DNA of 64,000 nt, taken from positions 7,440,001 through 7,504,000 of the forward strand of contig OZ234494.1 of the NCBI GenBank assembly GCA_965153455.1. Reading direction: 5' to 3'. Shown here piece after piece: positions 7,701-64,000 of this stretch (positions are counted from its first letter, which is position 1; the number at the start of each line of letters is the position of its first letter). This stretch comes from Sphagnum compactum (taxonomy: Eukaryota). The position numbers and the translations under genes were made by a program. The notes under the pieces are model-generated. The model ran no database searches. It saw only the letters and a list, made by a program, of their open reading frames with translations, and had not been told where the DNA came from.

Positions 7701-8369
7701 GGTCCACTCATCAATTTAAATAAGGTTGTGGGCATAATAAACTACCAAACCATTTGAAGTTTGGCTAGGTGCTCAATAAGAAAAGATTGCCTTACTATCT
7801 TCTTGTGTATTGGTTTTATGATCTAAACTCCTTGATCATGCCTTAAATTGGATGTTTTTCAATAAGAACACATGTGACCATATTGACTTAAGATAGGTCC
7901 TAAAATGAAATACAAGGTTTTAACTAATGTTGTTGCTTCAATTTACAATTTTGGTATATAAGTTGGCTATATGTCGGTCCATGTTTGATCTATGGTTGCA
8001 ACATGAACACATATTTGGTCAATTAATTGCCCAACCATCTAGTAGGGAGTGTGTTTTTTGTTCAGTAAGAAAAAAAGTGGGTCAATTTTCCTTTGAAAGT
8101 TTTCATAACAAAGGTTTAAGGATGATCCCACCAAAAAACCTTTGGGTGGGCCAATTTCATGATTAAGATTCACATATAACAAAATGTCAAATCATCCAAA
8201 GACCCATGTAGAATTCATAACTATAAGGATCCAAACAAATCTCAAAATTCAAGAAAAGAATTAATATACATGAAAAGAAAAATGTGAAGCTTAGTAACCT
8301 TGCCTTTCAACTAGCAAACCCTTGACTCAAACTTGCACCTTTTGCACCATATTGAATTACGGTCTCTAA

Positions 8370-19900: not shown

Positions 19901-19959
19901 GTGGTACGAATCGGATACTTGATCAGAGGTTATAATCGGCTTTAGAGAGTAGAGAGATC

Positions 19960-43070: not shown

Positions 43071-45268
43071 GTTTTTTTCATGGGACCATGGGTGTTAAAA
43101 GGACAAGAGAATGCTTGCATGCTTTGATAGGATCTATGTCCTTAAATTTTTTTCATCCTACCCATGTAATAAAATTTTGTAATACTGGATCAAAAGTGAT
43201 AGTATTGACCATCCTATCTCCTACGAAAGGAAACTGCAATAAGAGTTTAAAGAGAAATCGTATTGGAAGATGAATGCTAGACACTTAGAAAAAGTTGAAC
43301 CCTACATTAAGGAGATGTGGAACCAATTGCTAATTATTTTCAAAGATGAGGAAGATAATTAGGTTCTACAAAGGCTTTTGCAAGAAGAAAGCAAAACAAT
43401 TTTGAGAAGCAAATGTAGCTTTAAAGGTTGAGCTATGCACTACTCAAAAGCAGCTATAGAACACATCAAGTAACTTAGTATTCTAACAAAGGGTGAGTAA
43501 CATTTGTTCACGTGGACAAAATGAAAAACATCAAATCAACAAAAGCCAAATTTGATCCAGAATATAATGAAAATTTAAAAGAAACACAATGGCGAAAGAG
43601 GGTTTTTGCAACCATTAGAGATAAACCCCAAAAATCCTTGATCTCTACCTTAAAGAGATGAGAATGAATAGGCTATAACTAAATAGAAAGCAATGGAACA
43701 AATCTGCAGGGAATCTTCAGACAAACTGTACAAGGCTCCTACTAGGTCTTGATTAACATCGACATGATCAATGAGATCTTTTTTCAACAAATTTAGTTGT
43801 TATTTCAACCAAAAAAATTGCAATTAAAAAAAAACAATTCTGTTGTAAATTTGACTATATTTTTATTTTTTTTGGCAAAGACATCCCATATTTTCAATAT
43901 CATTTTTTTTTCTTAGAAAAACCCTCAACATTATCATTGTTTTTGTCACTTTCTTTTGGGACAAAAAAGTTCACACACTAGTGATTATTTTTTTTTGAAA
44001 AAATGTTGGGTTGTTTCAGTGAAATTTGGACTAAAATTTCAAAATTCTGTAGACATCTTTCACCAGCTTTTTGACATCCACAAATTCGAAAAATAATAAT
44101 TAAATAATTTAAATCACTGGGTCATGATTCGAATTCGCATTTTTTAAAGACTTGACTTGCATGCCAAAAAAAGAAAAAGAAAAGAAAAAGCCTGTAGCCT
44201 ACATCTTTAAAAAAATGTCAAGTGGACAAGCACACCTATGGGACGTTACCTTACCCTAAGGTCAGTTTCGTCATTAAATAATCCTCAAAATAGTGAAATG
44301 AAATCTTGTGAAAATATGAAGTTGATATATTGAGAATCATCATAATTATCATAAGCTACAATCTTATATATTCATTCACTAAGTCTGTTAGTCAGTCTGT
44401 GACCCCTTTAGGTTTTAGGTTTCACCGTCCGATCTCTGACTGTTGAGTGACTGAAAGCGAAAGTTAGTATGCAAACTGTCAAGGGGACTCACCACTTCGT
44501 AACTCTTCCTTTTATCTTACGTCTGATCTTTGCCATTTGTTGTGACATATCTCCTTTAGATGTAGCAGCTCTCCACATTTTTAATGCAAAGCCGATGCAA
44601 AGTTTTTAATCTTCAAGAACTTGAAAGAATCCAACTTTTTCTCTAATGGCTGCATGGATAAATGTAGTAATAGCTGGGTGTTCATTTATAACAAGGATAT
44701 AGATATGACAATAAAATAGCAACAAAGCAGCCAACATTTGAACTGCACCCATGCAGGGAGCTGATGAAGTGAGTGGAGATGTTATGGTAGCTGGTCACTG
44801 CAATACATGTTGGTGTCTAAGGTCACCAAGCATGCATCATGACAACCCCCCAGATGACAATTTACCAATTCTTTGCTTCTGCAGCAAAAATTTACTATTG
44901 CAGGAATTTTTTTTGGGTGATTTTTTAGTGCACATAGTTCATGCAAATCTGAATTTTCTCAGAAGAGTAGCTCCAGTTGCTGCAATGGGTATTTTTGACA
45001 GGAAAATCAGAGGCATGTTATGCCATAGATTTTGCTTGAAAGTTGACCAACTCACAGAGGCAAGATCTCTGGAAAATGAAGCTAGATCTGCTTCAAGAAT
45101 TAAAGACAAATGCTTCAAGAATTGAGAGGCAGATGGTTCAAGAATCGAAGGACTTGGCTTAATTCACTTGGTCTGTTAGTGTGTCTGTCTGAACCTGTCC
45201 ATTCCGACCCGTTAATAGTCTCTGCGAGGCCGATTCTACAACCCCCTAGATAACAGAAACGAGGTCCC

Positions 45269-45321
45269 GAAATGAGCCGCACCTGGCGCTAGAACATTTT
45301 AGGCCAGGTGCGGCTCATTTC
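45269..45321. repeat. Perfect 19-bp inverted repeat (hairpin) within a GC-rich repeat block
   Basis: GAAATGAGCCGCACCTGGC, a 15-nt loop, then GCCAGGTGCGGCTCATTTC. Confidence 0.9.
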
Positions 45322-46539
45322 TGTCTGTGACAGGGCTTGGGAAGGGGGTTTGGCAGAACCGGCCGGCCTCTAAATATACCCAGATGGGGAAAACATAGTT
45401 TATTTCGACCAATCGATGTAGCTGACAGAAACGAGGTCCCGCAACTGGCCTGAAATGTTCCAGCGCCAGGTGCGGGTCGTGGTGGCGGAGAGACACCTGG
45501 CCTGAAATATCTTTTTTTTATGGGAAACTTTTTTTTTTCCCCTCCTGGAAATGTGGCGATTTTTTTTTTTTTTTGAAAATTTTCCAAAATGCTCGCTTCA
45601 CCATGTATGTTTTCATGGGGGACTTTTCAACGGATTTTCATCACAAAAAATAAATAAAACAAAAATAAAAATAGTTGCTTTGCTCCTTTGTGTGTGTCTC
45701 TCTTGGTTTAAAGAAACCGGGGACTTCACAGTGTCCAAAGGTCACGGGTACCCACTAGTTTGACTAAATTCACTACTCATATTACAATATTCTAATAGAT
45801 GATGGAAAAAAATTAAAAATTAAAAATAAAATAAAATATAAATAAAAATATAATTTCAAATTTTAAAAACGAATTCTATTTTTGCAAAAAATACATTATT
45901 CGTTTTGTCACTGTGGAAACTGACCCTACCTACCAGTTCCTATTACCTACCTACAAACCAGGTCTTGATTCACATGGTGGTGATCGGACTGAGCACTTTC
46001 TGGGAACCAACACTTTTTTGGGCGTGACAGCAGGAGGAGCCTGGAGGAGCCTTTTTTTTTACGTTTGTCTGTCTGTTTGCTTGTGTGGATCACACGTGTT
46101 CCAGTTTGATCGTGCCGCGCATTTTCCATGCTCTTTCGGAACCGGTGATCATTCCGCGCATAATTTTGGCGTCGAAACAAATCGAAAGAAAGTCGTCACC
46201 AGCAGTAGTAGTAGGCTAGCAGTGTTTTCAATTTATTTTATTGGCGAAATTTCGCCAAATTTCGGCCTGAAAAATATATGATTTCAATGGATTTCTCATG
46301 GAAAAAACATTGCCCAAATTCGCCAGATTTCGGGAAATTTTGTTTCAAATTGCCAAGTTTTTTTATGATGAGTTCCAGTAGGTACCTATTTAGCCAAGCA
46401 TATCGAAGGATTCTGGTTTTTTTAAAGAAAAACTTTCATATCTAGTATATAGCCAAATTTGGCTAAATTATTTTTTGTATGATTATCACCAGGGATTTCT
46501 GTTTTTTTCCCAATTTTCTGTCGCTGGGTCATTGGGTAG

Positions 46540-46576
46540 GGCTTGAGTGAATTAGCAGCCACCAATGCACCAGTTG
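46540..46576 (+). repeat. Left terminal inverted repeat of the MULE
   Basis: GGCTTGAGTGAATTAGCAGCCACCAATGCACCAGTTG, versus the right-end reverse complement GGCCAGAGTGAATTAACAGCCACCAATGCACCAGTTG. Confidence 0.9.
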
Positions 46577-46871
46577 AGGATGAGCCCGTTCAACCCGTTT
46601 TGAGGATGAGCCCGTTCAACCCATTTTGGGGATGAACCAAAACCACATCCGGACTGCCCAAATATTTTTTTTTTCTCCCGCCTCTACTCTGCCCCAAAAC
46701 ATTTCTCCCCTACCTACCTTCCTCCCCCCTCCTACCTACCCCCTCCTACCTCCCCCCTCCTACCTACCTCCAACGTCTTACCTCTAATCGCCATCGCCAG
46801 AGCACCACAGCGAGAGCAGGAGCACCATCGCGGGAGCACCACAGCGAGAACGGGAGCACCATCGCGGTGCC

Positions 46872-49643
46872 ATGTGTAATCAAGGAAGGTCAGGATTGAG
46901 CTATTGGTCACCAAACATAAACATAGTCAGAGATCCTCGATGGGGAAGGACACAGGAAACACCAGGGGAGGATCCAAAGCTTACGAGTACATATGCAGTC
47001 TACTTTGTAAAGGGTCTGCAAGAGGGACATTATGATGGTTCCCAGATCCACACTGCTGGGGGGCCAAAGCGGTTAAAGGTTTCTGTGTGTTGTAAGCATT
47101 TTACAGCTCATGACTTGGACAGCTGGAAAGGCTATGATCGCAACTATTTTGATGCGAAAGTAAGTTCCATATCCCTCTGCTCCTCAGCATTTTGCTTTCC
47201 TCTAAAGTTCAATGCTTTACCTGCTCCTTTTCAGCTGTGATTTTGTCTCAAGCCCAGTTCATTTTACTGCTGGTTTGTGTCTTTCTATGGACTGATTTGT
47301 CCTCTTCTTATATTTGCTTACCTGGATGGGTAGACAAATGTAAAGCATTGTTTGTTTTAGATGAGCATATTCACCAAGTGAGGGAGATGTCCAAATGCAG
47401 TTTGAATTTTGAAAGTCAAGAATCAGGAAGAATTGTAGAATTCTGATTTAAGAACCTATGGGTTCAAAAGTACATTTCCAGAATCAAATCCTGATTGAAA
47501 CCTTCTCTTGATTGGAACTCAGACCTTCCTACGGATGATAGCTTAATGATCTCAAGAATGTGGTCAGGTGAGTCTGCAAGACTTGGAGGACACTTATAAC
47601 CCACCTTTCAAGAGCTGTGTGAAAGAAGGGCAGTCCAGTAGCCTAATGTGCTCCTACAATCGTCTCAATGGAATTCCTATGTGCAGTCACTATGAGCTTC
47701 TCACTCTCACTGTCCGCAATATTTGGGGCTTTAATGGGTATGTCACGACCTTCAATTGTTTGTGTTTTAGGTTTTGTGCTTGAAGTTGAAGATGAACTGT
47801 TATGAAATCTTAAGATGCCATTTGGCAACAGATTTTATATCAGTTTTTTTGTTGCAGGGCAATTGCAAAAGGGTTTTGATTGACAGAAACTTGTTGTTGG
47901 CTGTAGGTACATTGTGTCAGATTGTGATGCGGTTGCACTAATACATGAATACATCCATTATGCACCTACTCCAGAGGACGCAGTCTCTTATGTTTTGTTG
48001 GCAGGTGCTCCTCTTGGTGTTGGACAATTTGATACTTTTGTTGTGATCTTTAATCACTTTGATTTGTGGGAACTCTGAAAGGTAGGTCACCCATGAGAGA
48101 CATGCCCCAGAAAATGAACTGAAACTTGAGATGAATTTTTCAGGTATGGATCTTAATTGTGGAACGACAGTTTTATATCATGCTCAGGCTGCACTAGACA
48201 AGGGATTAATTTGGGAGGAACTTATAAACATGCACCTGCGCAACCTGTTCTCTGTGCGGATGCGATTGGGGATGTTTGACGGAGATCCTGAAACTCTTCT
48301 GTTCGGCTCACTGGGACCATCTGATGTTTGCACCACTGGTCACCAAAATCTTGCTCTTGAGGCTGCTCAACAAAGCATTGTTCTGTTGAAAAATGATAGA
48401 AGTGCACTTCCATGGAACAAAACAAAAAAGTTCAAGGTGGCTGTGATTGGCCCTCATGGGAATGCAACTCAAGAGATGCTTGGTAATTATGAAGGTATAA
48501 TTGGGCCATCCTATTGATTCCTCAAAGTGATTCCTCTTGACATCTTATAGTAATGTGGGTTGCCAGTACAAGTGCAACTATTCTGGCCTACCAACTCTGA
48601 AGCTTTCTGTGCTTAGTCAGTATTTTTGAAATGTCACATGTTGTCAAACTAATTGTCATGGCAAAGTTGTGAGTTTAACCCCAACATGCCTAAGGTTTGT
48701 AAGATTGGTCCCCTTAGGCACATAAGGGAAAATCTGTTTGCTTCCAAGGTTTTGCCAAAGCCTAGTCTTATCAGAAGAGTGAGAATTAGAAAGAGACTTG
48801 TCATAAAAAAAATTCTTTGGGTTTCTGCAGGCATTCCCTGTAAATTTACAAGTCCTTTGGATGGAATAAAAACACTTTTTGGGGGCAATGGGCAAAGTGT
48901 GATTTACGCACCTGGATGTGCTGATGCAACTTGCAGAGATGGAAATCTCTTTCCATTTGCAGTGACTGCTGCCTCAGAAGCAAATGCAGTTGTCTTATTT
49001 GTTGGATTAAGCCAGGCCCAAGAATCAGAAGGACGGGACCGTGAAAGTCTACGTCTTCCAGGCAAGCAAGAGGAATTAATTTCAACTGTACTAGATGCTG
49101 TTAACGGGCGCCCAGTTGTGTTCGTAATATTGTCAGGTGGGCCTGTTGATGTCTCATTTGCAAATGACGATGAGCGAGTTGGAGGTATTCTATGGGCAGG
49201 CTATCCTGGACAGGCTGGTGGTCAAGCAATAGCAGAAATCATCTTTGGTGATGTGAATCCAGGTAATTTAGGTGCCTTGTTAAATGCAATGACTTGGTCT
49301 CTGATTTGGTTTAATGAGTGAAACCTCTGGTGCAGGTTCTAGGGGAAGAATATTTGAGGGTGGGGTTCTGTTTCATAATAATTGTCAGGTCTCAATTACT
49401 GGATGGCTAGCTCCAGGATGTAACAAATGAGAACTGGCACGATGGGTGTTCTATCTCCTGCATATGGAGGTTAACTATTCTGTTATGATGACAGCCATAT
49501 GCTATAAGACACGTTAAGTGTTGTGATTGAAATGAACCTTTTTGCTCACAGGTTGTGGATGTTTTGATTGGTGTGATGTTATAGGAGGCCGATTAGCTCT
49601 TTCATGGTACCATGAGAATTACACACAGATGGATATGTTTTGA
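46872..49643 (+). pseudogene. BXL: Captured internal fragment of a GH3 beta-D-xylosidase/arabinofuranosidase (BXL) gene; open spliced frame of 465 aa
   Basis: Exons 46872-47159, 47568-47737, 47907-48004, 48144-48494, 48831-49262, 49585-49643. Motifs [80 protein letters not shown]. Lacks the signal peptide/N-terminus and the C-terminal Fn3-like domain. Confidence 0.9.
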
Positions 49644-49690
49644 TCCAAGGTGTGTTACGGTTTAATTTGGTGATTTTTGGGTGTTTGTAG

Positions 49691-49847
49691 GGTTCAGGAC
49701 CAAACAAAGGCCCAGTTTGTTGCAAATGCAGTTCAGATTGAGATGCAACGCTGCCATCTTTACACTGCTCATCATGCAGCAAAGGTTGCAAATGCAGCAG
49801 CTGCATATCGAGCTAAACACGGGATTGTAGATACTGATATGGGTTAG
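49691..49847 (+). pseudogene. Orphan terminal exon of an unknown, probably element-encoded gene
   Basis: After a TGTTTGTAG acceptor it reads VQDQTKAQFVANAVQIEMQRCHLYTAHHAAKVANAAAAYRAKHGIVDTDMG*, followed by T-rich, 3'-UTR-like sequence. Not BXL-like. Confidence 0.45.
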
Positions 49848-50959
49848 GGTTTCATTTTATATAATTAGTAAGGTTTTGTAGCCCTTTTCTTTTTTGGACT
49901 ACCCAATTTTGAACTTTGATCCTTTGATATGTTATAGTGATCCAATGTTTTTTCTTCATTGGGTTCTCTAGTAATTTTCCATGCACCCATTTTTGTACAT
50001 CTTTTATTAATATAATAGTATCGGCTACTCACACTTGTTTGATGTGTATTTGGTTAATCCTATATGTCTTCTTTGTCATAATTTTGTTTGTACTTGAAAT
50101 GTAAGAATCAAATCAAAGATCAAAATAAACATTATACAATACTTACATCTAAGTTAATAGGACTCACATCACTTGAAGACTTTAAAAATAATCCACACAT
50201 TTTAAACATATAATACCCACATCATTTTCTATTATGAACTCCATAAGACCATTTTCTAATATGCAATACCTGCATATAACCTCAAAAAATAGCCACAGAC
50301 ATTTTGCATTAAATGCAATACCCGCATATAAGTCCCATAATAGGCAATGGCCTTTTTCATTCATTGCAATACCCTCATATGAGTCCCATAATAGCCGCTG
50401 GCATTTTGCATTCCTTACAATACCCACATAAAGGGCACAAATAATCATTGACATTCTTCATTCGTTGCAATACCCGCATATAGTCTCCAAAATAGCGACT
50501 GGTTTTTTTGGGTTCTCTTGCAATACCCGCATATAGGTCCCATAATAGTTGCTGGTTTTTTCATTCATTGTAAAACTTACATTTTGTCATAAAATTAATT
50601 TAGAATAATATTTAATTTAGGTATATAAAAAGACATAATTTTGGTACCCAGACCATTTTTGAAATGACATTACATGCGAGTATTGCATTTAGGGTTTAGG
50701 GTTTTCACATATGCTTTCCTCCAATCACCTATGTATTATTTCAGTATGATCTTGCAAATATGTATTGCATTTTTTTGCATATAAAATTCCCCTTATAATG
50801 CACCATAGATTTATTTCATTTACTATTAATTTGTAAAAAAACTGTTAATTAATTTAGGGTTTCCCAAACTCTAAATTTCAATCATGGATTCCCAATCAAC
50901 AACCCTAACCTCCATACACACCTTTGTTAGCATATGATTTTGAAATTAACTAGTTATTT

Positions 50960-51112
50960 TAGAGTGACCCTAAATGCAGGTATTGCATTTAGGGTAAGAT
51001 CTTCATTTAAAAAAGGCTTAAACCCCACATGCGTATTTTTTGTGTGACCCAAAGTGCAGGTATTGCATTTAAGGTAGGATTTTCGTATAAAGATGCTTAA
51101 ACCCACATGCGT
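50960..51112. repeat. ~80-bp satellite block of the MULE (x2)
   Basis: GTGACCC(T/A)AA(A/G)TGCAGGTATTGCATTTA(G/A)GGTA...CTTAAACCC(C)ACATGCGTA starting at 50964 and 51044. Confidence 0.85.
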
Positions 51113-51246
51113 ACAATAGCCTCCCGCCTAAGTACGCAACTTGAACCTGGGAGGAGTGTGCGTACTTAGCCGGTAGGTGCGCACTTAAGACCAATCACTT
51201 TTCTTTGTAGCCACAACAGCAGCTTTAGCAACATCATTATCAGTAT

Positions 51247-51710
51247 CCTAAACCTAAACCCTAAACCTAAACCCTAAACCCAAAACCTGAACCTAAACCT
51301 TAAACCCTAAATTTAAACCCTAACTTAAACCTTAAACCTTAAACCTAAACCCTAAATCTAAACCTAAACCCTAAACCTTAAACCTAAACCTAAACCTTAA
51401 ACCCTAAATCTAAACCCTAACTTAAACCCTAAATCTAAACCCTAACTTAAACCCTAAACCCCTAAACCGTAAACCCTAAATCTAAACCTAAACCCTAAAC
51501 CCTAAACCTAAACCTTAACCTTAAACCCTAAATCTAAACCCTAACTTATACCCTAAACCCCTAAACCCTAAATCTAACCCTAAACCCTAAACTTAAACCT
51601 AAACCCTAAACCTTAAATCTAAACCCTAAACTTAAACCTAAACCCTAAATTTAAACCTAAACCTTAACCTTAAACCCTAAATCTAAACCCTAAACTTAAA
51701 CCTAAACCCT
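51247..51710. repeat. Degenerate interstitial telomere-like array (CCCTAAA/CCTAAA/CCTTAAA/TCTAAA)
   Basis: ~460 bp of variants of the plant telomere repeat. Opposite-orientation TTTAGGG units follow at ~51755-51775. Confidence 0.9.
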
Positions 51711-53326
51711 CTATAATGCATTGTAGATTTATTTTATTTACTATTAATATTTGTAGGGTTTAGGGTTTTAGGGTTTACCCAACCTTAACATGTGAAAACC
51801 CAACCCTAAACCCTAAACCCCTAAAATATTATATGTATTGAAAATGGATCAACAGTATAATTCCATAATATCATTATTTATGTATTAGGTTTTATAAATA
51901 ACAATATATTTGGACCAATATTTAAACCACTATTATGTGTTTTGATTTTTTTTTAACACAATTTAAAATCTCATTAAATTAAAGACTTTATATTTACGTT
52001 TTTAGTATGAATATACAACTTTAAAAGGGGAAAAAAAATATGAACATCTTTGAAAAATATTTAAGCTTGAACTTTTTATTTTTTGATCTTCACAAACTTT
52101 GTATTGCATTTAGGGTTGGGTTTTCACATAAGGTTTGTTTTTTACCTTTGTGTGATAACTCCAACCTAATTTTCCCAATCTCTTTCAGGAAGATATAGAA
52201 TGCAATTGTATTGTTTCACATATGTCTAAACCCTAAAATTTTCCCCCCAATTTAATATAAAATATTTATGATAATTAATGAATTATCAATAAAATTTGTC
52301 ATATAATTAAATAATTAATAGACCATTATTTTAGATAATTTAGATGATTAATTATGAAGAATTAGATAATCATTTATTTATTTAAAATAATTAACCAATC
52401 ATTTGGCTTAAATTTATTTACTTGAAAATAAAAAGTTGGATTTAATCAGATTAATTAATTTGATATTTGATTGACTAAATTTAGTATATTTTTGTTTTAA
52501 TAAGTTATTGGAATCATTATTTAAGATAATTATTCCATGTTATAAATTGCAAGTTCAACTTTTTCATGAAAATTTCTTACACCAAAATAAGCTTGATCAC
52601 AATTGTCATTGTACTATTTGTTCCACAAATAATAGAACCTCTTTTCAAATTCATGAAAAAAAGTAAGGGTTAACTAATTATTTTAGAGTGACCCCAAATG
52701 CAGGTATTGCATTTAGGGTAGGATCTTCATTTAAAGAAGGCTTAAACCCCACATGCGTATTTTTCGTGTGACCCAAAATGCAGGTATTGCATTTAGGGTA
52801 GGGTTTTTTGAAGGTGACTTTGCGTCTGCATATTGTGTATAGGGCTAGGTCTTCACTTAAGGGTACCCAAACCATTTAGATGGGTTTTGTTTTTACGTGT
52901 GGGTATTGCATCTAGGCTTGTTTTTCATTTAAACTTGCAATACCCGAACTTATACTTACATATACTAACTGGAATGTTGGGGTTTCATTGCAATACCTAC
53001 ATCCATACTTACCTTTACCAACTGGAATTTTGGGGCATAATTGCAATACTTGCATTTGTACTTACTTTTACCAACTGGGATTTTGGGGCCTAGTTACAAT
53101 ACTTGCATCTAACATTAATATTATCATTATCCTTGTGTGTTTGCATTTCACACTTTTTGTGCTTATTATTTGGAAACAATAATAACCTTTGTGCCATATT
53201 GGACTTCATGTGTGTTGAATACATGATGTTCAAAGAATTTGGGGTATGATTTCCTCCATACAACATTGATTCTAAAAGAAAATTCTTAGTGCTAATGGCA
53301 ACAATCTTGATTAGTAATTGAAACAT

Positions 53327-56046
53327 TTATTCATGACATCGTTTAGTACGTACATTTGTGTGATTGAGCATTGTTTCATGCCAATCTTTGAGCCGTTTGA
53401 CACTATTTCCCAATCCATCTTCTACACGGCGTAACACCAATCCTGGGTGTGAAATTGCATTTGCCTTTGTGAGGCGTATGTTACGAATATTACATGCCAA
53501 TATTCTCATGTATGAGGTGGCATGTTCACAAAGTGTCACAACGCCTTCTTTACATTCATTTGTGATCTTTTGCATTGTAGTGACCAATTGTGCAAGAGCC
53601 CTTTCCATTGGGGTTGATGACATTATTGTCTCATTAGACCCTACAATGGCACCCATAGGGAGATCATTTTGCTCCATGTTCATGAGCCCATCAAATTCCA
53701 TGATCCCATCATCACCTTCAAGATGATCATCTTCGTCATCATCACTAGACTCCATATCATCTGGAATATGTTGCGGGTCTGCAAACATGTGACCCAACCC
53801 TCCACGATGTGATCCATACCATGTTCCACAATAATGAATGATATCCTCTTGAGAAATGTCTATGCATGTGAGAATGACCTTAATTTGGTGTTTACACATG
53901 TTCGCTCGCAATGCCCATTCGCATGTGCAACAAAACATTTCGGTGAATGGGAATTTCACCGTGTAAATAACATTGGGAAGGCGCTGGCTCCGTACGGCCC
54001 AAGCTCCATCACTCTCAAGGGTTGGTTGGTACACATGGCTGATTGGAATAAGGGCTGCCTTCTCCACACTTTGTGTAATAATGGCTTCCATAACCTTGTT
54101 TTTTATGAAACCCTTCTTTTTCATTTCCAATGTGTGCATGTAGTGGCGTGCAATGGTTGTTGTTAATCGCCACACCAACCAGTCAATCCTACGCCCTCTA
54201 AGGCCTCTTGTGTCAAGAGCAAGCCAACGTTTCAACGCACCATGATATGAGTCAATGCTCGCTTGGGTGTCTTGGTTGGAATGGGCACTCTTCGAACACT
54301 CACCATCCATAATTCTACAAACATAAACACAATACACAAGGATGAATAACATTATACAAAATAAATTTGAATGCTGAACCATGATAAGTATTATCACTTA
54401 CCAAATTGATGGTAATAAGTCCAGAAATAGTTTGTCCACGCATCACCAGGCCTATGTTTATGAAGGCTTTCTCTCACAGCAACCCTCCCACGCTCTTTGA
54501 AGTCATCAATTGTTTCTCCATGATTGATGGACATGTACATCACATCATGAAGGTCTTGGAGGATTCCACCCCGCACTTCCACATCTTTGATTTTTTCAGT
54601 ACCACGTAGGCGCCATGCTTTGAGAACATGCCAACAACAAAGGTAGATGGGAACCTTGTCCATACCCCATACGACCCTAATAAGGACACATATGCAATAA
54701 AATATCCATGAGTGGATGGGGTTAGTACAACATAAAATGCATTTGAAATAATCAAGAATTTTATGAAAGATATTAAAAAAACATTTAAGGAAATAAACAC
54801 AAAGTCAATACTAGGTATAGAACTAACCGTAATGCCTTCAATTCTTGAGGTGCATCATCAACGAGAAAACATGATGGTTTCCAATGTGGCATGAGTGATA
54901 ACATCTTCTCTTTTAATGGTTTTAACCATTCGATCAAATCTTGCACTGTTTGCCTACCTGTAATGATCCAGGCTAAAGGGACACTCGTGCGATGATCATC
55001 AAATCCCATCAAGGTGAATAGATGGAATTTCATGTCATTTGTGCCAAATGTGGCATCCATAGAAATGGCACCATTGTGACCATATGATAGCATGGACTCA
55101 CATTGAGTTGGTGTTTGAATACCTATGGTGAATGGGACTTGACTTCCATTCATTTCACCAACATCTTGGAAAAAGAACACATCTTCCGGATGTTGGAGAG
55201 CCCAAGACCGAATTGAAATTGCAGGGTTAGTGTGTAAACGCCAACTCCCTTTCTTATGTTTTCGATCCAAATATGCAATGTCTTGAAGCCGAATGAAATC
55301 ATCTCGTGTCATGCTTTGACCCGCATTCACACGTTCCCACCAAATTGCTTTATGCTTGTCATATATTTGTTTGGGGGTATAACCTAAGCTTAATTGGGCC
55401 CATATGTGGTCTTACAGTGCTTGTGACATGCGTGGAGCATAACGAGACATACGAGAAATGGACTCTGGGTCATGCTCACCATGTGCGAATGACCCATCAA
55501 TTTGTGTATGGGCCTTATGATAAATTGTGATCTCAGCCACATCAGGTCGTGTGTATAGACGTTTGATTGAGAATGACGCTAGGCATCCTCGTTTAATAGA
55601 TCGAGTGTGGGTTGAATTTTTTCGATAGTCCTCTGGTCCATATGCGCATTGATACCTAGACCAAAAAACTTTCAAAATGTAAATGATTACATATTTGGTA
55701 TATGAATTAAATAAATTAAAAAGGTTAATGCCATAAATGTTTACCATGTATGCCCGAGGTGGTTTTTGATAGTTGGATGCTTGACATCCGTTTGGCTTGG
55801 AAAGTTTTTGTAAACACTCCATTCCACAGGGGTGCTCGTATCCCCTCGTTCACCTTCCAAGAATTCCGAGATGCGAGTATACAGAACATAAGCAAATTGA
55901 ATGCTCACTTTATTTTGCCCTCCATGGCGTATCCCAAACGTCCACACCAAGTCTTTGTTTGAGAAAGGGGACTTGGTGGGGTTTTGGACATGAATGGAAT
56001 GGGACTTTGGAACCCTTCCCATGATTGAAGGAAGTAGGACAAATTC
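53327..56046 (-). pseudogene. MULE (Mutator-family DDE) transposase with SWIM zinc finger, disrupted
   Basis: Exons 56046-55745, 55655-54828, 54676-54402, 54314-53327. Motifs SMDATFGTN (D1), FLVDDA (D2), LCCWH (CxxH), TQASIDSYH (expected E is D) and CTC...CKH (SWIM). In-frame TAA at 55412-55414 and an apparent 1-nt deletion near 54284. The true first exon was not located. Confidence 0.88.
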
Positions 56047-57517
56047 CTGCATCAAGAGAATTTATAATTCTCTAAACATTCATCATTGAACAAAAACCCA
56101 AAATGCAATACATTCATGGCTCCTTTAAAATCAATGTTGTGACTTGGAATTCCCATTACAACACCCATATCATGATATAAAAAACCTATTATTCCAATGT
56201 ACATAACGTACAACACTTGCATTATGAACCCATATACTAAAACAAACTTTGGCAATACCCACATTGAGCTATTAAACCTTCCATCATTGAAAATTTTCTC
56301 ATATGTAATACCCGTATTGTACCTTAAACCCATAATGTCTGAAAACCCCATGTAGCAATACCTACATAATGATAATTAATGCACACTGTTTGAAAGGTGC
56401 AAAATGCAATACCTGCCTTAAGCCATAAAACCCACACTGGTTGTGGGTAGTCAATGCATAATTCGCATATGGGTATGAAAAAAAGAACTACAAAGAAATA
56501 TTGAATATGAAATATCCATGTAAAAGTATAAAACCTTTATCTATGCTTGTATATTTAATGAAACTTGATGCCCTTTCTATATCCAACAAGTAGGAAATGA
56601 AAAGAGGTTGAATTATGAAAAATATAAACAAAAAAACAAAAGAAGTAACAAGAGACAAATGCATACCTTCAAGAATAAAAGATGACAACGTTCCACCAAA
56701 GTTTATAGTCCCAATTGAAAACGCAACCCTAAAAAATCATAACTCGTAAAAAAATGGGTTAGAAAATATTAAACCCTAGCAACTATGGAACATATGGAAA
56801 CAAAGGAAATTCAAATTATGGTATAGATCTAAACAAGTGAAAAGATCAAAAACCAATACAATGAACAAAATTTAGAGTATAAACCTTAGGTTTTGAAATA
56901 TATGAACCAAATTCTTATACACTAAATAATAAAGCATAACCTTTAAAATTCAAATGATATTTTGCCATAAGCCTTATTACAACCCTATTTATACAAACCC
57001 TAACAAGAAAAAGTCTTACTAATATATGTCCTAAACCCAAAAAACTATACAAATTATACAAATTATATAATGAAAAATACGTTAATCTACAAAAACAATC
57101 AAATAATTTTCATACAAAACCAAAAGAGAAGATATGTCTTTTACCTTTGTGTGATCTCTCCAACTTAATTTTTTCCACTCTTTTGGAAGAAGATATAGAA
57201 TGCAATTGTATTACTTCACATATGTGTAAACCCTAAAATTTTCCCCCCAAATTTAGCCTACTTTAGATTAATTACTATACATTTGTGAGAAACTTATGAA
57301 CTAATTTATGTGTCTCAACCCTAAACCTAATGGTTAAGTTAGTAGGGTATGTAATTAATAGAGTAGCTAGGTTAGTAGGGTAGGTGGTTAGTACAATAGC
57401 TAGGTCAGTAGGATAACTAGTTATTAGGGTAGCTATGTGAGTAAGGGATAATAAATAAGGTATGAAGGTTGGTGCAATACTTATGAGGGTAGGAAAGTGA
57501 GCAGGGTAGCTATTTAG

Positions 57518-57712
57518 AGTGACCCAAAATGCAGGTATTGCATTTAGGGTGGGATCTTCATATAAATAAGCCTAAATCCCACATGCGTACTTTCGACGTG
57601 ACCCAAAATGCAGGTATTGCATTTAGGGTAAGATCTTCGTATAAAGAAAGCTTAAACCTTACATGCGTCCTTTAGGAGTGACCCAAATTGCAGGTATTGC
57701 ATTTAGGGTTGG
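57518..57712. repeat. ~80-bp satellite block of the MULE (further blocks at ~52688-52805, 58640-58845, 59365-59555)
   Basis: Unit core CCCAAAATGCAGGTATTGCATTTAGGGT, starting at 57519, 57598 and 57678. Confidence 0.85.
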
Positions 57713-59594
57713 GTTATTTCAAAGTGACTTTGCATATGCATATTGTGTTTAGGGCTAGGTCTTCACTTAAGGGTATCCAAACCATTTAGATGGGGTTTTT
57801 TCAAACGTGGGTATTACATTTAGGTTTGTTTTTTCATTTCAACTTCAGACTTATACTTACCTTTACCAACTAGAATTTTGGGGTTTCGTTGCAATACCTA
57901 CACCTGTACTTACTTTTACCAACTGAATAGTTGCCGACATTCTTCATTCGTTGCAATACCCGCATATCGATCCATGGTATTCGTTGGGTTTTTATAACAT
58001 TCGTTGCAATACCCGCATATAGTTCCCATAATAGCTGCTGGTTTTTTTTGGCATCTCTTGCAATACTCGCATATAGGTCTCATAATAGTTGCTAGTTTAT
58101 TTTTGATCTCAACAAACTTTGTATCGCATTCAGGGTTGGGTTTTCACATAAAGTTTGTTAATTACATTTGTGTGATAATCCAACCTCATTTTCTCAATCT
58201 CTTTGAAGAAAATATAGAACGAGATTGTATTGTGTCACATATATCTAAACCCAAAAATTTCCCCCCAATTTAATATAAAATATTTCTGATAATTAATTTA
58301 TTATCAAATAATTTAGATGAATAATTATAAAAAATCAGATTGATTAATTTGATATTTGATTAATTAACTGAAGTATATTTTTGTTTTAATAAGTTATTGA
58401 AATCATTATTTAAGATAATTATTCCATGTTATAGATTGTAAGTTCAGCTTTTTCATGAAAAATTCCTACACCAAGATAAGTTTGATCACAATTGTCATCG
58501 TATTATTTGATCCACAAACAATACAACCTCTTTTCAAATTCATGAAACGAAGTAAGAATCATGGAACTCCTAATCAACAACACTAACCTCTATACACACC
58601 TTTGTTAGCATATTAATTTGAAATTAATTAATTATTTTTGTGTGCCCCAAAATGTAGGTATTGCATTTAGGGTAGGATCTTCATATAAAGAAGCTTAAAC
58701 CCTATATGCGTCCTTTCGGAGTGGCCCAAATTGCAGGTATTGCATTTAGGGTAGGATCTTCGTATAAAGATGCTTAAACCCCACATGTGTATTTTTTGTG
58801 TGCCCCAAAATGCAGGTATTGCATTTAGGGTGGGATCTTCATATAAACCCTAACTATACAAACCCTAACAAAAAGAAGAATTAGTGATATATGCCCTAAA
58901 CCCAAAAAACTATATAAACTATACAAATCATATAATGCAAAATAACCAAATTTAAAAGAACATAGGAAAAAATTTAGAAACCAAAATTCAAAGGTTTTTA
59001 ATTATAAATATTTATTAACTGAAAGAAAATATGTTAATCTTTAGAAATAATCAAATAAATTTCGTACAAAACCAAAAAAGAAGATATGTCTTTTACCTTT
59101 GTGTGATTTTTCCAACCTAATTTTTCCATTCTTTTTGAAGAAGGTATAAAATGCAATTGTATTACTTCACATGTGTGTAAACCCTAAAATTTTCCCCCCA
59201 AATTTAGCTTACTTTAAATTAATTATTATACATTTATGAAAAACTTATCAATTAATTTATGTGTCTCAACCCTAAACCTAATGATTAAGTTAGTAGGGTA
59301 TGTAATTAATAGAGTAGCTAGGTTAGTAGGGTAGGTGGTTAGTACAGTAGCTTGGTTAGTGATGTGACCCAAAATGCAAGTATTGCATTTAGGGTATGAT
59401 CTTCATGTAAAGATGCTAAAAGCCCACATGCGTACTTTCGAAATGGCCCAAAATGCAGGTATTGCATTTAGGGTAGGATCTTTGTATAAAGAAAGCTTGA
59501 ACCCCACATGCGTACTTTCGAAATGGCCCAAAATGCAGGTATTGCATTTAGGGTAAGGTTTTTAGGGTAGGGTATGTAATTAATAGGGTAGCTA

Positions 59595-59730
59595 GGTTAG
59601 TAGGGTAGGTGGTAAGTACAGTAGCTAGGTTAGTAGGGTAGGTGATGAGTACAGTAGCCAGGTTAGTAGGGTAGGTGGTGAGTACAGTAGCCAGGTTAGT
59701 AGGGTAGGTGGTGAGTACAGTAGCTAGGTA
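59595..59730. repeat. 33-bp subterminal tandem repeat (x4)
   Basis: GGTTAGTAGGGTAGGTG(G/A)T(G/A)AGTACAGTAGC(T/C)A repeated. Confidence 0.9.
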
Positions 59731-59909
59731 GAAAAGTGAACAGGGTAGAAAAGTGAGCAGGGTAGCTATGTGTGAGGTCAGGTCCAGGGAAAAACGAGCA
59801 AGAAAAAAAAAAAAAAAGTACAGTGGTCAGCAGCAAAAAGAAATCGACTGTGATGAGCCCCATCCGGCGCCGAATGAAAAAACGCAACCCATCCAGTGGA
59901 CAGAACGGC

Positions 59910-59946
59910 CAACTGGTGCATTGGTGGCTGTTAATTCACTCTGGCC
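59910..59946 (-). repeat. Right terminal inverted repeat of the MULE
   Basis: CAACTGGTGCATTGGTGGCTGTTAATTCACTCTGGCC followed immediately by the TSD ATTGGGTAG. Confidence 0.9.
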
Positions 59947-60511
59947 ATTGGGTAGCATCCTGAGAGGGATTTAGCATGACAACAGGTTAAAATTTTTCTT
60001 TTTCCAAGTTTGGCAATTCTGTCAGAAAAAAAAGGGGAAAAAACTAATTAAAAAAAAATGCTACAAAGCTATAAATCAAATTCCAAATGTGGCGAACAGT
60101 TTTGAAACAAATCATTTTTAGAATATTGGCGATTGTTTGACAGCAAACGGAAAATATAGTGACAGAATAATATTTCATATTTTTTTTGAAAAATTCCCAT
60201 TTTCTCGAAATTTAGCATTTCAAAAAAAAAGCTGAGATTCGCCACCTTGGCTACATCACAAAATCCTTTTTAAAAAAAAAAACAGCAGCAGCACCTGCAG
60301 GAGCCAGGGCATGGCGGAACAGCAGCCAGCAGGTCGCAATTTGATTTGCCAGATCGGGCACAGACGTGCACCTCTAAGGACGGGAACGGGAAAGTGTTTT
60401 GTTGTTTGTTTGTTAGGTGTGTGTGTGTGTGTGTGGGGGTGTGCTTTTTTCGCGGTTTTTTACATGCTGCCGCCTCCCATCGCTGCTTCGTGAGCTTCTT
60501 CCTTCCTAATA

Positions 60512-60632
60512 ATTTTTCATGGATTGCAATAAAACTCATGATTTTTCAAGGCTGCTTGCAATAAAAGTCATGATTTTTCAAGGATTGCAATGAACGCGAT
60601 GATTTCTCAAGGATTGCAGTAAAAGTCACGAT
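60512..60632. repeat. ~29-bp tandem repeat (x4) upstream of the ABCB start codon
   Basis: GATTTTTCAAGGATTGCAATAAAA(C/G)TCAT-like units. Confidence 0.8.
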
Positions 60633-60968
60633 GATTGAGGAAGAGGGGAGAAAAAAAAGTTTTTTTTTCGCATGATGGCTGTTCCTTCTTCCTTGGAGAC
60701 GCTTTTTTTCTTTTTCTTTTTGGGTTTATTAGTGCTTTGAGATTTTGGGAGTTTTAGGCGATTTGGATGGCTTGAGGTTTTTGTGGGTTTTTGTGGTGCT
60801 GCTCGTGCTCCTATAAAGATTTGGTTGTAGGAATTAGTAGTAGTAGTAGTAGTAGGGAGTTCAGGAATTGTGTGTGTGTGTGTGTTTGTGTATGTGGGTG
60901 CGAGTGTTGTTGGCTTTTTATTTTTTGCAGCAAAGGGAAGGGAAAGGAAAAGGACGGGAGGCCACTGA

Positions 60969-63900
60969 ATGGGGAAGAGGAATGGATACTTGCCGGAGAC
61001 TCCAGTGTTCAATGGCACCACCAATGTAAGAGTCGCAAGCAGGCAGCGGCGGTGGCGATTGGCGATATTCATTTCTGTCTTTTGCGTCGATCTTCTGTTT
61101 GCGCTGGTAATCCTTTGTGCAAAGTCTTCTTCTGTATAGTATTGCCTGTCCTTGTTTTGCCTTTTAGGTTTACCGTGCCCCGATGAGATTTTTTCTCAAA
61201 GCTCTGGGGTTTACATATTGCGGATACCCTATCACCTCTGGAGTAGGTATAGAGATCTGTTGTGGTTTATTTGGCTGAATTTGTTGTCTCCACAGATGTT
61301 GAGCAGGCAATGCAAATAGGGACAGTTAAGTTAGTTTTTTCAGAAGAAATTTATTTTTCAAAGAAGATTCACTCTGAGAATCCATAGGGAGGATGGAAAA
61401 TCTTGTTGGATGTGGAACGGTTGCAGCTCTTATACAGAAGATTTTTTAGTTTTTAAAAAATTTCTGAGAATCTGTAGTGAGGGTGGGAAAAAATTTCTTG
61501 CTGGATGTGGAACGGTGTTGCAGCTCTTGTACAGCACAGTGCATTTTTGGAGCGACAAGAATGATTTTTCATTGAGTGGGTTGTGGCATTCGCTGACATG
61601 CTTTACCACAGACACCTTGGATTTAGTTCTCCTGAGTCTGCTGCGGTTGGGGAGCCTTTCGGGGCTTTCCTATTATGGGAGTGTGCTTGCTTGTGTGGAA
61701 GCTGTGGACAAAGAGAAGAAGGTCAAAGGCAGCAGCAAACCACAGCACTCACAGCAGCCAACGAACAGGAACAACACTAGTAAAGTGTACTCACGTGCAG
61801 CAGGTGCCAACATCAATGGAGAGTCTCATCCTAATGGCAAATTATTGGAGAATGGAAGCCTTAAAGAACCACTGCTGTCCAAGAAGGACTCAGTAGCTGT
61901 TAAGGCTCCTGCAAGTTTCTATCAAGAGTGGTTTGCAGGATCATCAAGGAAAGATGCTGTTTTTCTTGTTGTCTTTCTTCTTTGCACTGGATTCCAGGTA
62001 CCCTCTTTGTTTCATCCTTTTCTGGCTGACTGCTCTATGTGTCAGCCCCTCTTTTGTGTTATGTATAGGAGAAGGGTAGGGCCAGAGGCTCTTCCTTGTT
62101 TTGAGGTGCCTAGGCACAAGGGTAGAAACCTGACTGACAGGCACTGAAAACAAGGATGGGCCAAGGGTCCTACCCTTCTACATCATAAAAAGGTGCCCTA
62201 ATTTTCAGAGGGTGTGAGCTTCCACCACAGAAGATTTCTTCTATTTCAGAAGATCCTTGCTGAGTTCTTGCACCTGACAATGGTCGTCTAAATACACTAC
62301 AAAAATTAGGGCAGGTTTTTACATGGTGGAGAGAGATGAAATTTGCGGCAGTTGTTGATGATGATGAACCATATGGAGGTTTTGCAGTTTATCAGATTAA
62401 TTGGTGGGCATGGGTGATATGTGGTGAACCTGTAGGCATATGTGGGGGCCAAGTGTGTCGGGTTTTCTTTTGACACTCTGCATAGACTGTTCAACGTGCG
62501 GCTTGAAATATGGCAAAGCATTTTGATGGGCACCACAGTTCTGTGGATAAATGCAGAAAGCTCCATGTTGACGCGTGTTGTGGACTCCAACCGTGTGCTG
62601 AGTCGTGCCCATTTTCTCAATGCCAAGCACACAGCCCAGGACCTTGAAGGTTCTCGAATTATTATTGGAGCTATCAAGTAGGAAATGCTTCCTGTGATGG
62701 ATCTAAAATGCTCATTAATCAGCTTGCAATTTTTTTTACAGCTGCAATGCTGCTATATTGGGTAAGTGCAGAATTGCTCTTCATTTTAGTAGGTAACAGT
62801 CAAATGGGCAACTTATAATTTGGGAGGGTGTAATGGTTTTCAGCAATGTGAATTCTGTGGAAGCTGAGGAAGGGACTTTGAGAGGCGACAAGGGAGTAAG
62901 AGAGGAGCAAGAGGTGGACCAGACTAGTTACTTGATGCGGGCAGTGTCTCTAGCTCGGAATGAATGCCTTCTGCTGTCCTGTGCTTTTTTCTGCCTTATG
63001 GTGTCATCTGTTTCCAGCTTGATCCTGCCAAATTATCAGGTTTTTCTCACTCTCACTTGACTGCTCTTATTTTCATTTGTGTTAGAAGAAATTTATGTCC
63101 AATGTATGTACCCATGTGAGAGTTCTCTTGTAATTTGCTGGTGCCAAAAGAGGAAACTCAAGCTATTGTTAGTGCTCACAGCATTGTGTTTAATTTCTTT
63201 CACAGGGTCGAATATTGGATCACGTGATTCAAGGAGCAGTAGCTCTGTTCAGGAGGGATGTGATATTGTTGATAGTCTTTAGCTTGGTGACCGGCCTTTT
63301 TGAGGCAGTTCGAAATCTATCCTTCACAGTGGTGAGCAAGCGTGTGTTAAAGACTCTGCAGGACAAGCTTTTCACAGGCATTGTGATACAAGACATTGCT
63401 TATTTTGATGGCACTACATCTGGAGAGGTCAGCAGTCAAGCTTTCAGTTTTTGAGTTTATTACATGAGATGGATAACCTTATCAAGCCCTGGTGTTGAAA
63501 CAATTGAAGGAGGTGTCATTTCCACTTTGGGGATTCTTTTTGTTTTACTCATGTTATTTTGGTGGCAGAGACATAAAAGGACTTGCTCATGAGGTGTAGG
63601 TTCCGTTGACATGAGAGTAAGAGTATACTTTGGTGAAACCTGATTATATTTATTTTGTGCACTATGAACAGCTGACCTCAAGGCTCACCAACGATGTGTC
63701 CTCAATGGCTGAGCCTGTGAACTGGATGCTTTCAGCACTTTTGCGAAATTTGCTCGCACTTGGCGGTGGATTTGCAATGTGCTTCATCATAAGCTGGAAG
63801 CTTAGCATGCTTGCTTTCACTACCATGGCTCCCATTATGCATATAACGGCTGTGTACTCTCGGTGGTCTAGGGAGCTTAATCGCAAGCGATATGCTTTGC

Positions 63901-64000
63901 TGGCAGAAGCAAACTCCTCTGCTGCAGAAGCTCTAGGAAACATAAGAACAGTGCGTGCCTTTTCCACTGAGGATGTGGAGATCGATCGATTCAAGTCAAA
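60969..64000 (+). CDS. ABC transporter subfamily B half-transporter (TAP/TAPL-like), 5' part; runs off the window
   Basis: Exons 60969-61025 and 61168-61242 (tentative), then 61524-61997, 62436-62677, 62844-63039, 63206-63427 and 63672-end; phase-consistent. ABC_membrane motifs LILPNYQGRILD, LFTGIVIQDIAYFDGTTSGELTSRLTND, ISWKLSMLAF and AAEALGNIRTVRAFSTE. Confidence 0.88.

Follow-up and report, generated by a model that had tools for sequence, protein, structure and literature searches.

Does a 13.4-kb block of moss DNA that encloses a piece of a host gene, arrays of satellites and the remains of a transposase gene owe its position to a single transposition event, and if so, what kind of transposon carries such a load? 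The question is raised by the interval 46540–59946 of the window, the 64-kb stretch of DNA analysed here, which had been predicted from its letters alone to be a large cargo-carrying Mutator element. Our analysis argues strongly that the interval is one MULE insertion, belonging to a family with many copies in a Sphagnum-like moss and derived from a coding element that captured a fragment of a GH3 gene and was moved in trans. The element is real and well documented, but it is an ordinary kind of Mutator-type element.

Termini and target-site duplication

The terminal inverted repeats (TIRs) occupy 46540–46576 on the plus strand (an L-type end) and 59910–59946 on the minus strand (an R-type end); each arm is 37 nt long, 34 of the 37 positions (92%) are complementary, and the spacing between the arms is 13,333 nt. 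The outer edge of both arms is abutted by ATTGGGTAG, which is identical in direct reading at 46531–46539 and 59947–59955, so that the original prediction of 37-bp inverted termini with three mismatches and a perfect 9-bp target-site duplication (TSD) is confirmed. The length of the TSD falls within the 8–11 bp given for MULEs, whose recorded TIR lengths range from 14 to 500 bp (PMC6446971). When as many as three mismatches are allowed, a 32-nt TIR core occurs at exactly two sites in the 64-kb window and in none of 100 shuffles, and a looser 31-nt pattern returns the same two sites; neither kind of TIR pattern search found internal TIR remnants within the element. A supposed third terminus at 29981 was rejected as a chance match.

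Of the three mismatches between the arms, those at positions 4 and 16 distinguish left from right ends throughout the family and are not decay; the T at position 5 of the left arm is the one change private to the window copy, the right arm being equal to the R-type consensus. The TIR mismatches therefore provide no clock. An exon of an ABC transporter lies 3.7 kb downstream of the element, placing the insertion near a gene.

A single-copy empty site, with one 9-mer and the flanks joined, would read ...GCTGGGTC ATTGGGTAG CATCCTGAG.... When the flanks were used to look for a paralogous empty site in the window and the loci, they gave only scattered matches of 33–92 nt. Contig joints leading from 46467–46484 to 60239–60247 occur in all four runs among the joints listed; they were not counted as an empty site because their shorter sides measure only 18–39 nt, they lie 47–64 nt and 284–292 nt away from the TSDs, and the flanks are repeated.

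A high-copy family of termini

The 24-nt core of the termini recurs in at least 120 ends in moss-associated metagenome contigs, and the termini belong to a family present in many copies in a Sphagnum-like moss. Among the matches listed, the flanking sequences show no relation to one another until the outer G of the TIR is reached, and it is at this G that similarity stops in 119 family ends. The L-type consensus, GGCTGGAGTGAATTAGCAGCC..., is carried by 26 of the 120 ends and the Ra subtype by 57, again among the matches listed.

These 119 ends, with 108 distinct flanks among the matches listed, were scored for TSD pairing. At offset 0, the flanking 9-mer of one end is the reverse complement of that of the other in five pairs of ends, against a chance expectation of about 0.02 (5,778 pairs × 4^-9); of ten other offsets that served as a control, nine gave no pair and one gave a single pair. 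Further paired ends with 9-bp TSDs, which had been proposed as a check, are thus present in the metagenome contigs. Four of the five pairs among the matches listed combine an R-type with an L-type end, like the window element, and in the remaining one (L014+L065) both ends are R-type and match over ~140 nt. The description of the TIRs as short consequently suits the L/R architecture but does not extend to the whole family. The assignment to Mutator holds, given the 9-bp TSD here and in five other family insertions, the conserved termini and a PF10551 match above cut-off (see below).

A terminus of a sister family lies within 66 bp in 5 of the 108 flanks and, in three of these, at exactly 9 bp (among the matches listed). 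Our literature search found no description of MULEs or Pack-MULEs of Sphagnum, and the main repeat classes named in the Sphagnum genome paper are CACTA and unclassified (PMC9946827). The present analysis would define a previously undescribed, abundant Mutator family of peat-moss genomes, including its ends, TSD length, target preference and transposase.

Interior of the element

All of the predicted contents, namely a host gene fragment, an orphan exon, a telomere-like array, satellites and a transposase pseudogene, were found between the termini. The left subterminal region (46577–46868, plus strand) consists largely of tandem repeats identified by TRF, with 26-bp repeats at 46574–46635, CCTACC repeats at 46713–46783 and 34-bp repeats at 46791–46867, and as far as ~46822 it is common to the L-type ends L001, L007, L037, L050 and L061 at 76–96%. 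On the opposite side, the right subterminal region of the Ra subtype (59770–59909, minus strand) is identical or near-identical in many R-type ends.

Several satellites of 33–80 bp lie inside the element, in two large blocks. The left block (50246–53130) is made up of a 51-bp satellite, 80-bp-type units, a degenerate telomere-like CCCTAAA array at 51247–51710 and a 53-bp satellite, and is composed of direct copies, at 75–94%, of blocks within 56981–59769. The latter interval, the right block, contains 33-bp, 54-bp and 80-bp satellites as well as an internal duplication of ~1.9 kb, and its repeats recur at 90–95% inside the R-type ends L024, L029, L051, L070 and L080. The interiors of other L-type ends are low-complexity tandem repeats in which no gene-like ORFs were seen by eye.

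The captured GH3 gene fragment

Between the left subterminal region and the left repeat block, a fragment of a GH3 (beta-xylosidase-like) gene extends over 46869–49638 on the plus strand, recognised by Pfam domains PF00933 and PF01915 and by tblastn matches to several GH3 proteins, P0001 among them. It comprises six exons (46872–47159, 47568–47737, 47907–48004, 48144–48494, 48831–49262 and 49585–49637), its reading frame is open and all five introns have GT-AG borders; the last, short exon is probably the orphan exon of the original prediction. The predicted host gene fragment is thereby identified, with its introns kept, and it lies between the termini as in Pack-MULEs. Relative to complete proteins, ~140 N-terminal and 187 C-terminal residues are missing. 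The best match is P0001, a 5'-truncated protein of Sphagnum magellanicum whose cluster has 68 member sequences and with which 451 of 464 residues (97%) are identical, bearing out the prediction of a bryophyte-like genome; identity to those full-length GH3 proteins of Sphagnum that were found is no more than ~59% in exon 5.

At the left end of the element, 330 nt of family subterminal sequence precede the GH3 homology, which begins at 46869 and ends at 49638, directly after which family-internal sequence starts again (49639–50245). One other family member, L057, matches 49639–49994 at 87% and differs in the sequence before that stretch, and the sequence at 49639 is internal in L057, 2.2 kb from its L end; contigs of X12 have loose ends at this same position. 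The left breakpoint is also seen elsewhere: a contig from another sample (X4 record 9) spans the junction between subterminal region and GH3, and P0001 begins at the very breakpoint at which the fragment of the element begins. Because it starts at the capture breakpoint, the truncated Sphagnum magellanicum gene model probably represents the cargo of a transposon rather than a gene of the host.

GH3 exons were found by tblastn nowhere in the window outside the element, and beside none of the six other L-type ends among the matches listed whose interior is available for 440 nt or more. In contigs of X4, X8 and X9 a second GH3 form continues past 49638; it could be the donor itself or a captured copy of greater length, and its presence means that at least two GH3-bearing variants exist. 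The summed contig depth over GH3, which is not equivalent to copy number, is ~4–5 times that of the flank in X4 and about equal to it in X8. DNA-level capture of gene fragments by MULEs is known mainly from angiosperms, and the GH3 fragment indicates that it occurs in a bryophyte too.

The transposase pseudogene

The MULE/SWIM transposase pseudogene occupies about 53327–55850 on the minus strand, where eight long relatives align by tblastn. Three exons can be seen, separated by introns at 54827–54677 and 54401–54315, and the N-terminal exon is undefined. The PF10551 match has an E-value of 4.1e-08 and a score of 34.0 bits against a Pfam cut-off of 27.6, and the relatives P0162 and P0185 pass the same cut-off. 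A word-indexed protein search with the 356-aa exon gave no match and an exhaustive HMMER search then gave 580. Identities to MULE/SWIM proteins of 650–870 aa amount to 31–39% over 160–320 residues, and the nearest named relative is a hypothetical protein of Riccia sorocarpa (35%), for which cluster look-up returned MULE/SWIM clusters only. Pfam reported no SWIM domain in the 356-aa exon at E ≤ 0.01; its motif CCTCEWALRANMCKHQ aligns with the CxC...CxH of the relatives.

The gene of the window copy has three lesions: a TAA stop codon at 55414–55412, a frameshift caused by a 1-bp deletion at 54282/54283, and an Asp codon (GAC, 54253–54251) where relatives carry Glu. Glu occupies the third triad position in all 13 pattern-matched relatives and in seven further ones, and judged by spacing and conservation this Asp probably sits at the catalytic Glu position. 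The CxxH motif follows the second Asp by ~25 residues and the Trp precedes the Glu position by 19, in agreement with the spacing reported for Muta1 (D283, H307, W401 and E419; PMC5225508). The combination of intact DDE triad, CxxH and Trp is found in the family as a whole but not in the window copy, which retains both Asp motifs, CxxH and Trp and has Asp at the third triad position. The claim that the element carries its own transposase is therefore true of the form of the gene but not of its function, given the stop, the frameshift and the change at the probable catalytic Glu. Since the frameshift is common to many family copies, a large part of the family, the lineage has probably been mobilised in trans.

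Origin of the element and alternative explanations

The events that produced the locus can be proposed as follows. The window copy would descend from a transposase-coding element in which a 2.8-kb genomic GH3 piece, introns included, took the place of an internal segment beside the left end; this step may be seen as capture of the Pack-MULE type, with gap repair or template switching as its probable route. By analogy with what is established for MULEs, the family DDE transposase would bind the conserved termini and excise the element, and integration through a 9-bp staggered cut would give rise to the duplication of ATTGGGTAG. The transposase that moved the element most likely came from an intact relative and acted in trans, because the element's own is dead (stop, frameshift and Asp at the probable Glu position).

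The most immediate challenge to one moved unit of 13.4 kb is that the GH3 piece or other cargo entered after insertion, through gene conversion or recombination with a GH3-carrying family copy, for which a high-copy family with a repetitive interior and the second GH3 form running past 49638 in X4, X8 and X9 would offer the means. We consider this unlikely, however: the subterminal/GH3 junction exists in another sample and P0001 starts at the same breakpoint, so that capture most simply predates the window insertion. It is improbable, too, that two family members came to flank a GH3 piece and that their outer ends then acted as one transposon. A model of this type is described for Pack-TYPE elements (PMC8903248), and the sister-family termini close to 5 of the 108 listed flanks, three of them at exactly 9 bp, are compatible with it, yet there are no traces of internal termini on either side of GH3, and the sequence from 49639 is internal and not terminal in L057.

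A different doubt concerns the assembly, in which repeats shared between copies may have joined parts of different elements into a chimeric interior, the ends and the TSD being real. No contig among those listed spans 49.2–60.3 kb, where each of the four runs has a contig depth 10–100 times as great as over the single-copy flank; against this, the element has an L-type left and an R-type right end, as do four of the five TSD-matched pairs among the matches listed, and the order of blocks on the right side is the same as in other copies, which makes a chimera very improbable. That two independent insertions landed by chance beside identical 9-mers has nothing in its favour but logical possibility and practically no probability, as a given 9-mer match has a probability of 4^-9 and other insertions likewise combine an L-type with an R-type end. 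A single insertion of a GH3-carrying coding-element derivative, moved in trans, accordingly remains our preferred reading.

More tentatively, and with the balance of probability against it, the element could belong to a gene-capturing MULE lineage, the first to be described from a bryophyte, and be on its way from coding element to classic Pack-MULE, with its cargo aboard and its transposase freshly dead, in a family that may also prefer to integrate into the 9 bp beside the terminus of a related element. Such a preference, if true, would generate back-to-back pairs of elements, raw material for composite cargo-carrying transposons.

Comparison with known Mutator-type elements

With the Pack-MULEs of rice, maize, Arabidopsis, tomato and Lotus the window element shares the 9-bp TSD, an intron-bearing, DNA-level host gene fragment between its termini and insertion near a gene. 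Most Pack-MULEs have long TIRs; the window element, by comparison, is 13.4 kb long, has TIRs of 37 nt and resides in a moss. Pack-MULEs are by definition non-autonomous, having lost the transposase gene (PMC6446971), whereas here a nearly full-length gene is kept, though dead with its three lesions, and the element is non-autonomous in function and not through gene loss. The predicted reading as a large Pack-type MULE that carries its own transposase is thus partly supported.

Coding MULEs such as MuDR, Jittery, Os3378 and Muta1 resemble the window element in their multi-exon gene, DDE domain with CxxH and conserved Trp before the Glu position, and putative C-terminal CxC...CxH (SWIM-like) motif. 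They differ in that the window transposase is at most 39% identical to any long relative found, the ends of the window element differ from each other beyond 37 nt and the copy is inactivated. In the KI-MULEs/VANDAL group a ULP1 protease domain is carried that has evolved a role for the element, and clear TIRs are missing from VANDALs. These elements, mentioned as transposase-encoding MULEs that carry ULP1-derived genes (PMC13317346), likewise combine a transposase-encoding MULE with host-derived coding sequence, but the truncated GH3 glycosidase carried in the window copy serves the element in no evident way. Finally, Mutator lineages of maize alternate between TIR pairs that are similar and pairs that are dissimilar (PMC10401008), and the moss family is alike in containing both L/R elements with 37-nt TIRs and an R/R element (L014+L065) with TIRs of ~140 nt.

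Structure of the insertion and its surroundings

The 13.4-kb segment at 46540–59946 is very probably one genuine insertion, made by a Mutator-like element (MULE) that belongs to a large family of a Sphagnum-like moss, carrying a captured fragment of a glycoside hydrolase family 3 (GH3) gene together with a dead transposase gene. Its left end reads ...tcgctgggtc ATTGGGTAG, followed by GGCTTGAGTGAATTAGCAGCCACCAATGCACCAGTTG, the terminal inverted repeat (TIR) at 46540–46576 in direct reading; the reverse complement of the right TIR (59910–59946) is GGCCAGAGTGAATTAACAGCCACCAATGCACCAGTTG, after which the + strand continues with ATTGGGTAG at 59947–59955. A repeat finder returned arms of 37 nt that are 92% complementary, with 13,333 nt between them. 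The 32-nt TIR core, with up to 3 mismatches allowed, occurs at two sites only in the window and in 0/100 shuffles, and a more degenerate 31-nt pattern recovered the identical two sites. The 37-nt inverted termini and identical flanking 9-mers of the original prediction are thereby confirmed as written. The perfect target site duplication (TSD) and a single private change across the 74 nt of TIR hint at a recent insertion but do not establish it.

Older repeat debris seems to surround the element. A LOB-domain gene at 19936–21174 (+; PF03195, E = 1.3e-38) and an ABC-transporter membrane domain exon at 63621–63998 (+; PF00664, E = 2.3e-24) indicate a land-plant host, the insertion lying 3.7 kb from a gene. 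Contigs of four public sequencing runs were placed on 44500–62000: X4 and X8 stem from other samples of organism A, and X9 and X12 represent organisms B and C, respectively. The only cross-element joints among those listed, 46467–46484 to 60239–60247, were rejected as an empty site, their shorter sides being 18–39 nt and both flanks repeated. Depth of the placed contigs over 45084–46835 was 436–7,294 in X4, X8 and X9, and paralogues of the element flanks in the window and the metagenome loci are only 33–92 nt long. Both flanking stretches (45084–46530 and 59956–60267) are highly repeated in the runs, and loose ends are numerous at 46432, 46468 and 60268. A 40-nt inverted repeat (45274–45313 / 45439–45478, 90%) is MITE-like in look.

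Satellites and blocks at 50246–53130 recur, directly oriented but rearranged, as blocks at 56981–59769 (75–94% identity), and none of them is found elsewhere in the window over 90 nt or more. Identical block types lie inside the R-type (right-like) ends of other copies, at 92% over 730 nt in L024 and at 90–95% in L029, L051, L070 and L080; the internal repeats belong to the family rather than to foreign elements nested in it. The CCCTAAA-type array at 51247–51710 is degenerate, with ~75% matches. Outside the element, a 29-bp tandem repeat (60512–60632) has a TTGCAATA motif resembling the GCAATAC-bearing satellites within it.

Right-flank sequence is present in 19 listed public runs, 10 of which contain half or more of its words; one run may itself be the source of the window sequence. 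Summed contig depth, which is not copy number and serves as a hint only, was 8–11, 33–42, 3–14 and 25–29 (X4, X8, X9 and X12, respectively) over the single-copy flank at 60852–62000, 44–51, 35–41, 79–97 and 30–39 over the GH3 piece, and 1,002–1,484, 1,988–2,493, 3,158–3,858 and 5,046–7,757 over the transposase region; it hints that each of the three organisms has a highly repeated element body and that the GH3 piece is low-copy.

A large family of elements with 9-bp TSDs

Scanning a metagenome collection with a 24-nt TIR core matched at least 120 contig stretches. Most of the listed matches lie within reach of a contig end, at ~100 nt, the pattern expected when an assembler runs into a repeat. 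Once all listed ends had been oriented from outside to inside, the flanks proved mutually unrelated up to the base preceding the outer G, and element sequence conserved from that G inward. The 120 listed ends comprise 57 Ra, 31 Rb, 26 L-type and 6 other ends; R-type ends (Ra and Rb; GGCCAGAGTGAATTAACAGCC...GCCGTTCTGTCC) resemble the right end of the window element and L-type ends (GGCTGGAGTGAATTAGCAGCC...MGGATGAGCCCGTT) its left end. Fixed differences between the two kinds explain the TIR mismatches at positions 4 and 16, and of the three arm mismatches only the left-arm T at position 5 is private to the window copy.

Sufficient flank for scoring was available at 119 ends (L061, whose TIR touches the contig start, was excluded), giving 108 distinct flanks. 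Among these, exact reverse-complement 9-mers directly outside the TIR occur in five pairs (L010+L083, L011+L109, L014+L065, L033+L072 and L091+L102) against a chance expectation of ~0.02 (5,778 pairs x 4^-9); nine of ten control offsets gave no pair and one gave a single pair. The match extends beyond 9 nt in none of the five, and four combine an R-type with an L-type end, as in the window. The exception, L014+L065, is an R/R pair whose ends match at 137/147 positions, a long-TIR form of a family otherwise having 37-nt TIRs. The first and last TSD positions are G/C in 74 and 84 of the 108 flanks, and the inner positions are A/T-rich. The family is large, previously undescribed and of a Sphagnum-like moss.

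In 3 of the 108 distinct flanks (L014, L032 and L085), a related 'sister' element has its terminus (...GGTTCACTCTGGCC, inside to outside) exactly 9 bp from the family TIR; in two more (L093 and L105) the distances are 45 and 66 bp. In L014 the intervening 9-mer is the TSD common to the partner end L065; new copies can therefore insert precisely within the 9 bp that adjoin a relative already in place. Self-nesting is seen in L025:1-2990, where an R-type end is flanked by the interior of another family copy in opposite orientation.

The captured GH3 fragment

Open reading frames at 46788–49321 (+) match the N- and C-terminal Glyco_hydro_3 domains. The best database relative, P0001, is a 651-aa Sphagnum magellanicum protein (NCBI hypothetical protein CY35_05G092000) whose first residue aligns at 46872. 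Six + strand exons with GT-AG introns (46872–47159, 47568–47737, 47907–48004, 48144–48494, 48831–49262 and 49585–49637) supply 464 open codons, and 451 of the 464 residues are those of P0001. Full-length moss GH3 proteins (P0008, P0014 and P0016) align only from their residues 129–148 onward; neither their first ~140 residues nor residues 465–651 of P0001 have a match anywhere in the window.

On the left, 330 nt of family subterminal sequence precede the GH3 sequence, and other L-type ends match the window as far as ~46822. The right breakpoint is 49638|49639: window sequence from 49639 onward matches another copy, L057, where it sits 2.2 kb inside an L end behind a different, T-rich sequence, and run X12 has loose ends at 49639. 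Breakpoints and introns together indicate that the piece is genomic DNA, introns included, replacing an internal element segment. It is absent from all six L-type ends with 440–2,880 nt of interior (L001, L007, L037, L050, L057 and L061), which consist there of low-complexity tandem repeats. The capture breakpoint is also where the annotated P0001 gene starts, and the cluster of P0001 at 90% identity has 68 member sequences.

GH3-exon contigs differ from the window by 0–0.7% in X4, 0.8–2.9% in X8, 0.5–1.5% in X9 and 0.4–2.7% in X12, and X4 record 9 spans the family subterminal/GH3 junction (46678–47042). X4 record 13, X8 record 21 and X9 record 29 cover 49130–49638 and continue for 596–1,411 nt unlike the window, so a GH3 copy extending beyond the window breakpoint exists in these samples; such a copy fits P0001, with its identical start and 187 more residues. 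The simplest reading would be a single capture of a longer GH3 piece, its 3' part then lost in the window lineage. The two-neighbour capture model (PMC8903248) is an improbable history for this element: the family does insert adjoining relatives, but pattern searches of the window found no remnants of internal termini inside the element that could support that route. P0001 itself may be a piece of transposon cargo that was taken for a host gene in annotation.

The transposase gene

Open reading frames on the - strand between 53327 and 55849 exceed the curated cut-off for PF10551 (MULE). Used as the query of an exhaustive HMMER search, the 356-aa last exon found 580 proteins (E <= 0.001), including many short fragments of 70–87% identity. 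Alignment of eight long relatives, with splice sites, defines three exons separated by introns at 54827–54677 and 54401–54315. Among named full-length relatives the nearest is a SWIM-type protein of Riccia sorocarpa (35% identity), whose Atlas neighbours are MULE/SWIM clusters.

The original prediction rightly called this gene a pseudogene, and three - strand lesions mark it. An in-frame TAA (55414–55412) interrupts a block aligned to relatives. At 54282/54283 one base is missing from a C-run, the intact-relative frame ...ELWMVGVRKVPHSNQDTQ.SIESYHG... needing one more; a G put in behind 54282 accounts for 42–64% of contig depth in all four runs, so about half of the family shares the frameshift state of the window. 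Since the frameshift is common to other copies, the window lineage probably already relied on transposase acting in trans at the time of this insertion. Finally, GAC (Asp) stands at 54253–54251 in the motif SI[E]SYHGxLK, where Glu is found in 13/13 relatives (selected by a pattern allowing E, D, Q or K) and in 7 further relatives. A CxxH follows ~25 residues on from the second Asp (LVDDAP), and Trp and Lys lie 19 residues before and 7 residues after the lesion. In Muta1 the corresponding set is described as D283, H307, W401 and E419, and changing E419 to Ala abolishes transposition (PMC5225508). From this spacing and comparison, the Asp probably occupies the predicted catalytic DDE Glu position.

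Relation to known MULEs

Our literature search found no paper on Sphagnum MULEs, and the Sphagnum genome paper gives ~30% repeats, mostly unclassified and CACTA (PMC9946827). The element is of use in annotation and adds to the natural history of gene capture beyond the angiosperms; its type is already known and would not surprise a specialist. According to PMC6446971, MULEs are defined by 8–11-bp TSDs, TIRs (recorded lengths 14–500 bp) and a DDE transposase that often bears a zinc finger; the Pack-MULEs among them carry fragments of host genes and are non-autonomous, having lost the transposase. Transposase-bearing MULEs with host-derived genes are likewise known, namely the ULP1-carrying VANDAL/KI-MULEs (PMC13317346). 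Of the proposal of a Pack-type MULE with its own transposase, the Mutator features and the gene fragment aboard hold good, whereas the literal Pack-MULE label, which excludes a transposase gene, does not apply. In contrast to Pack-MULEs, the window element keeps its transposase gene, yet it is non-autonomous in function.
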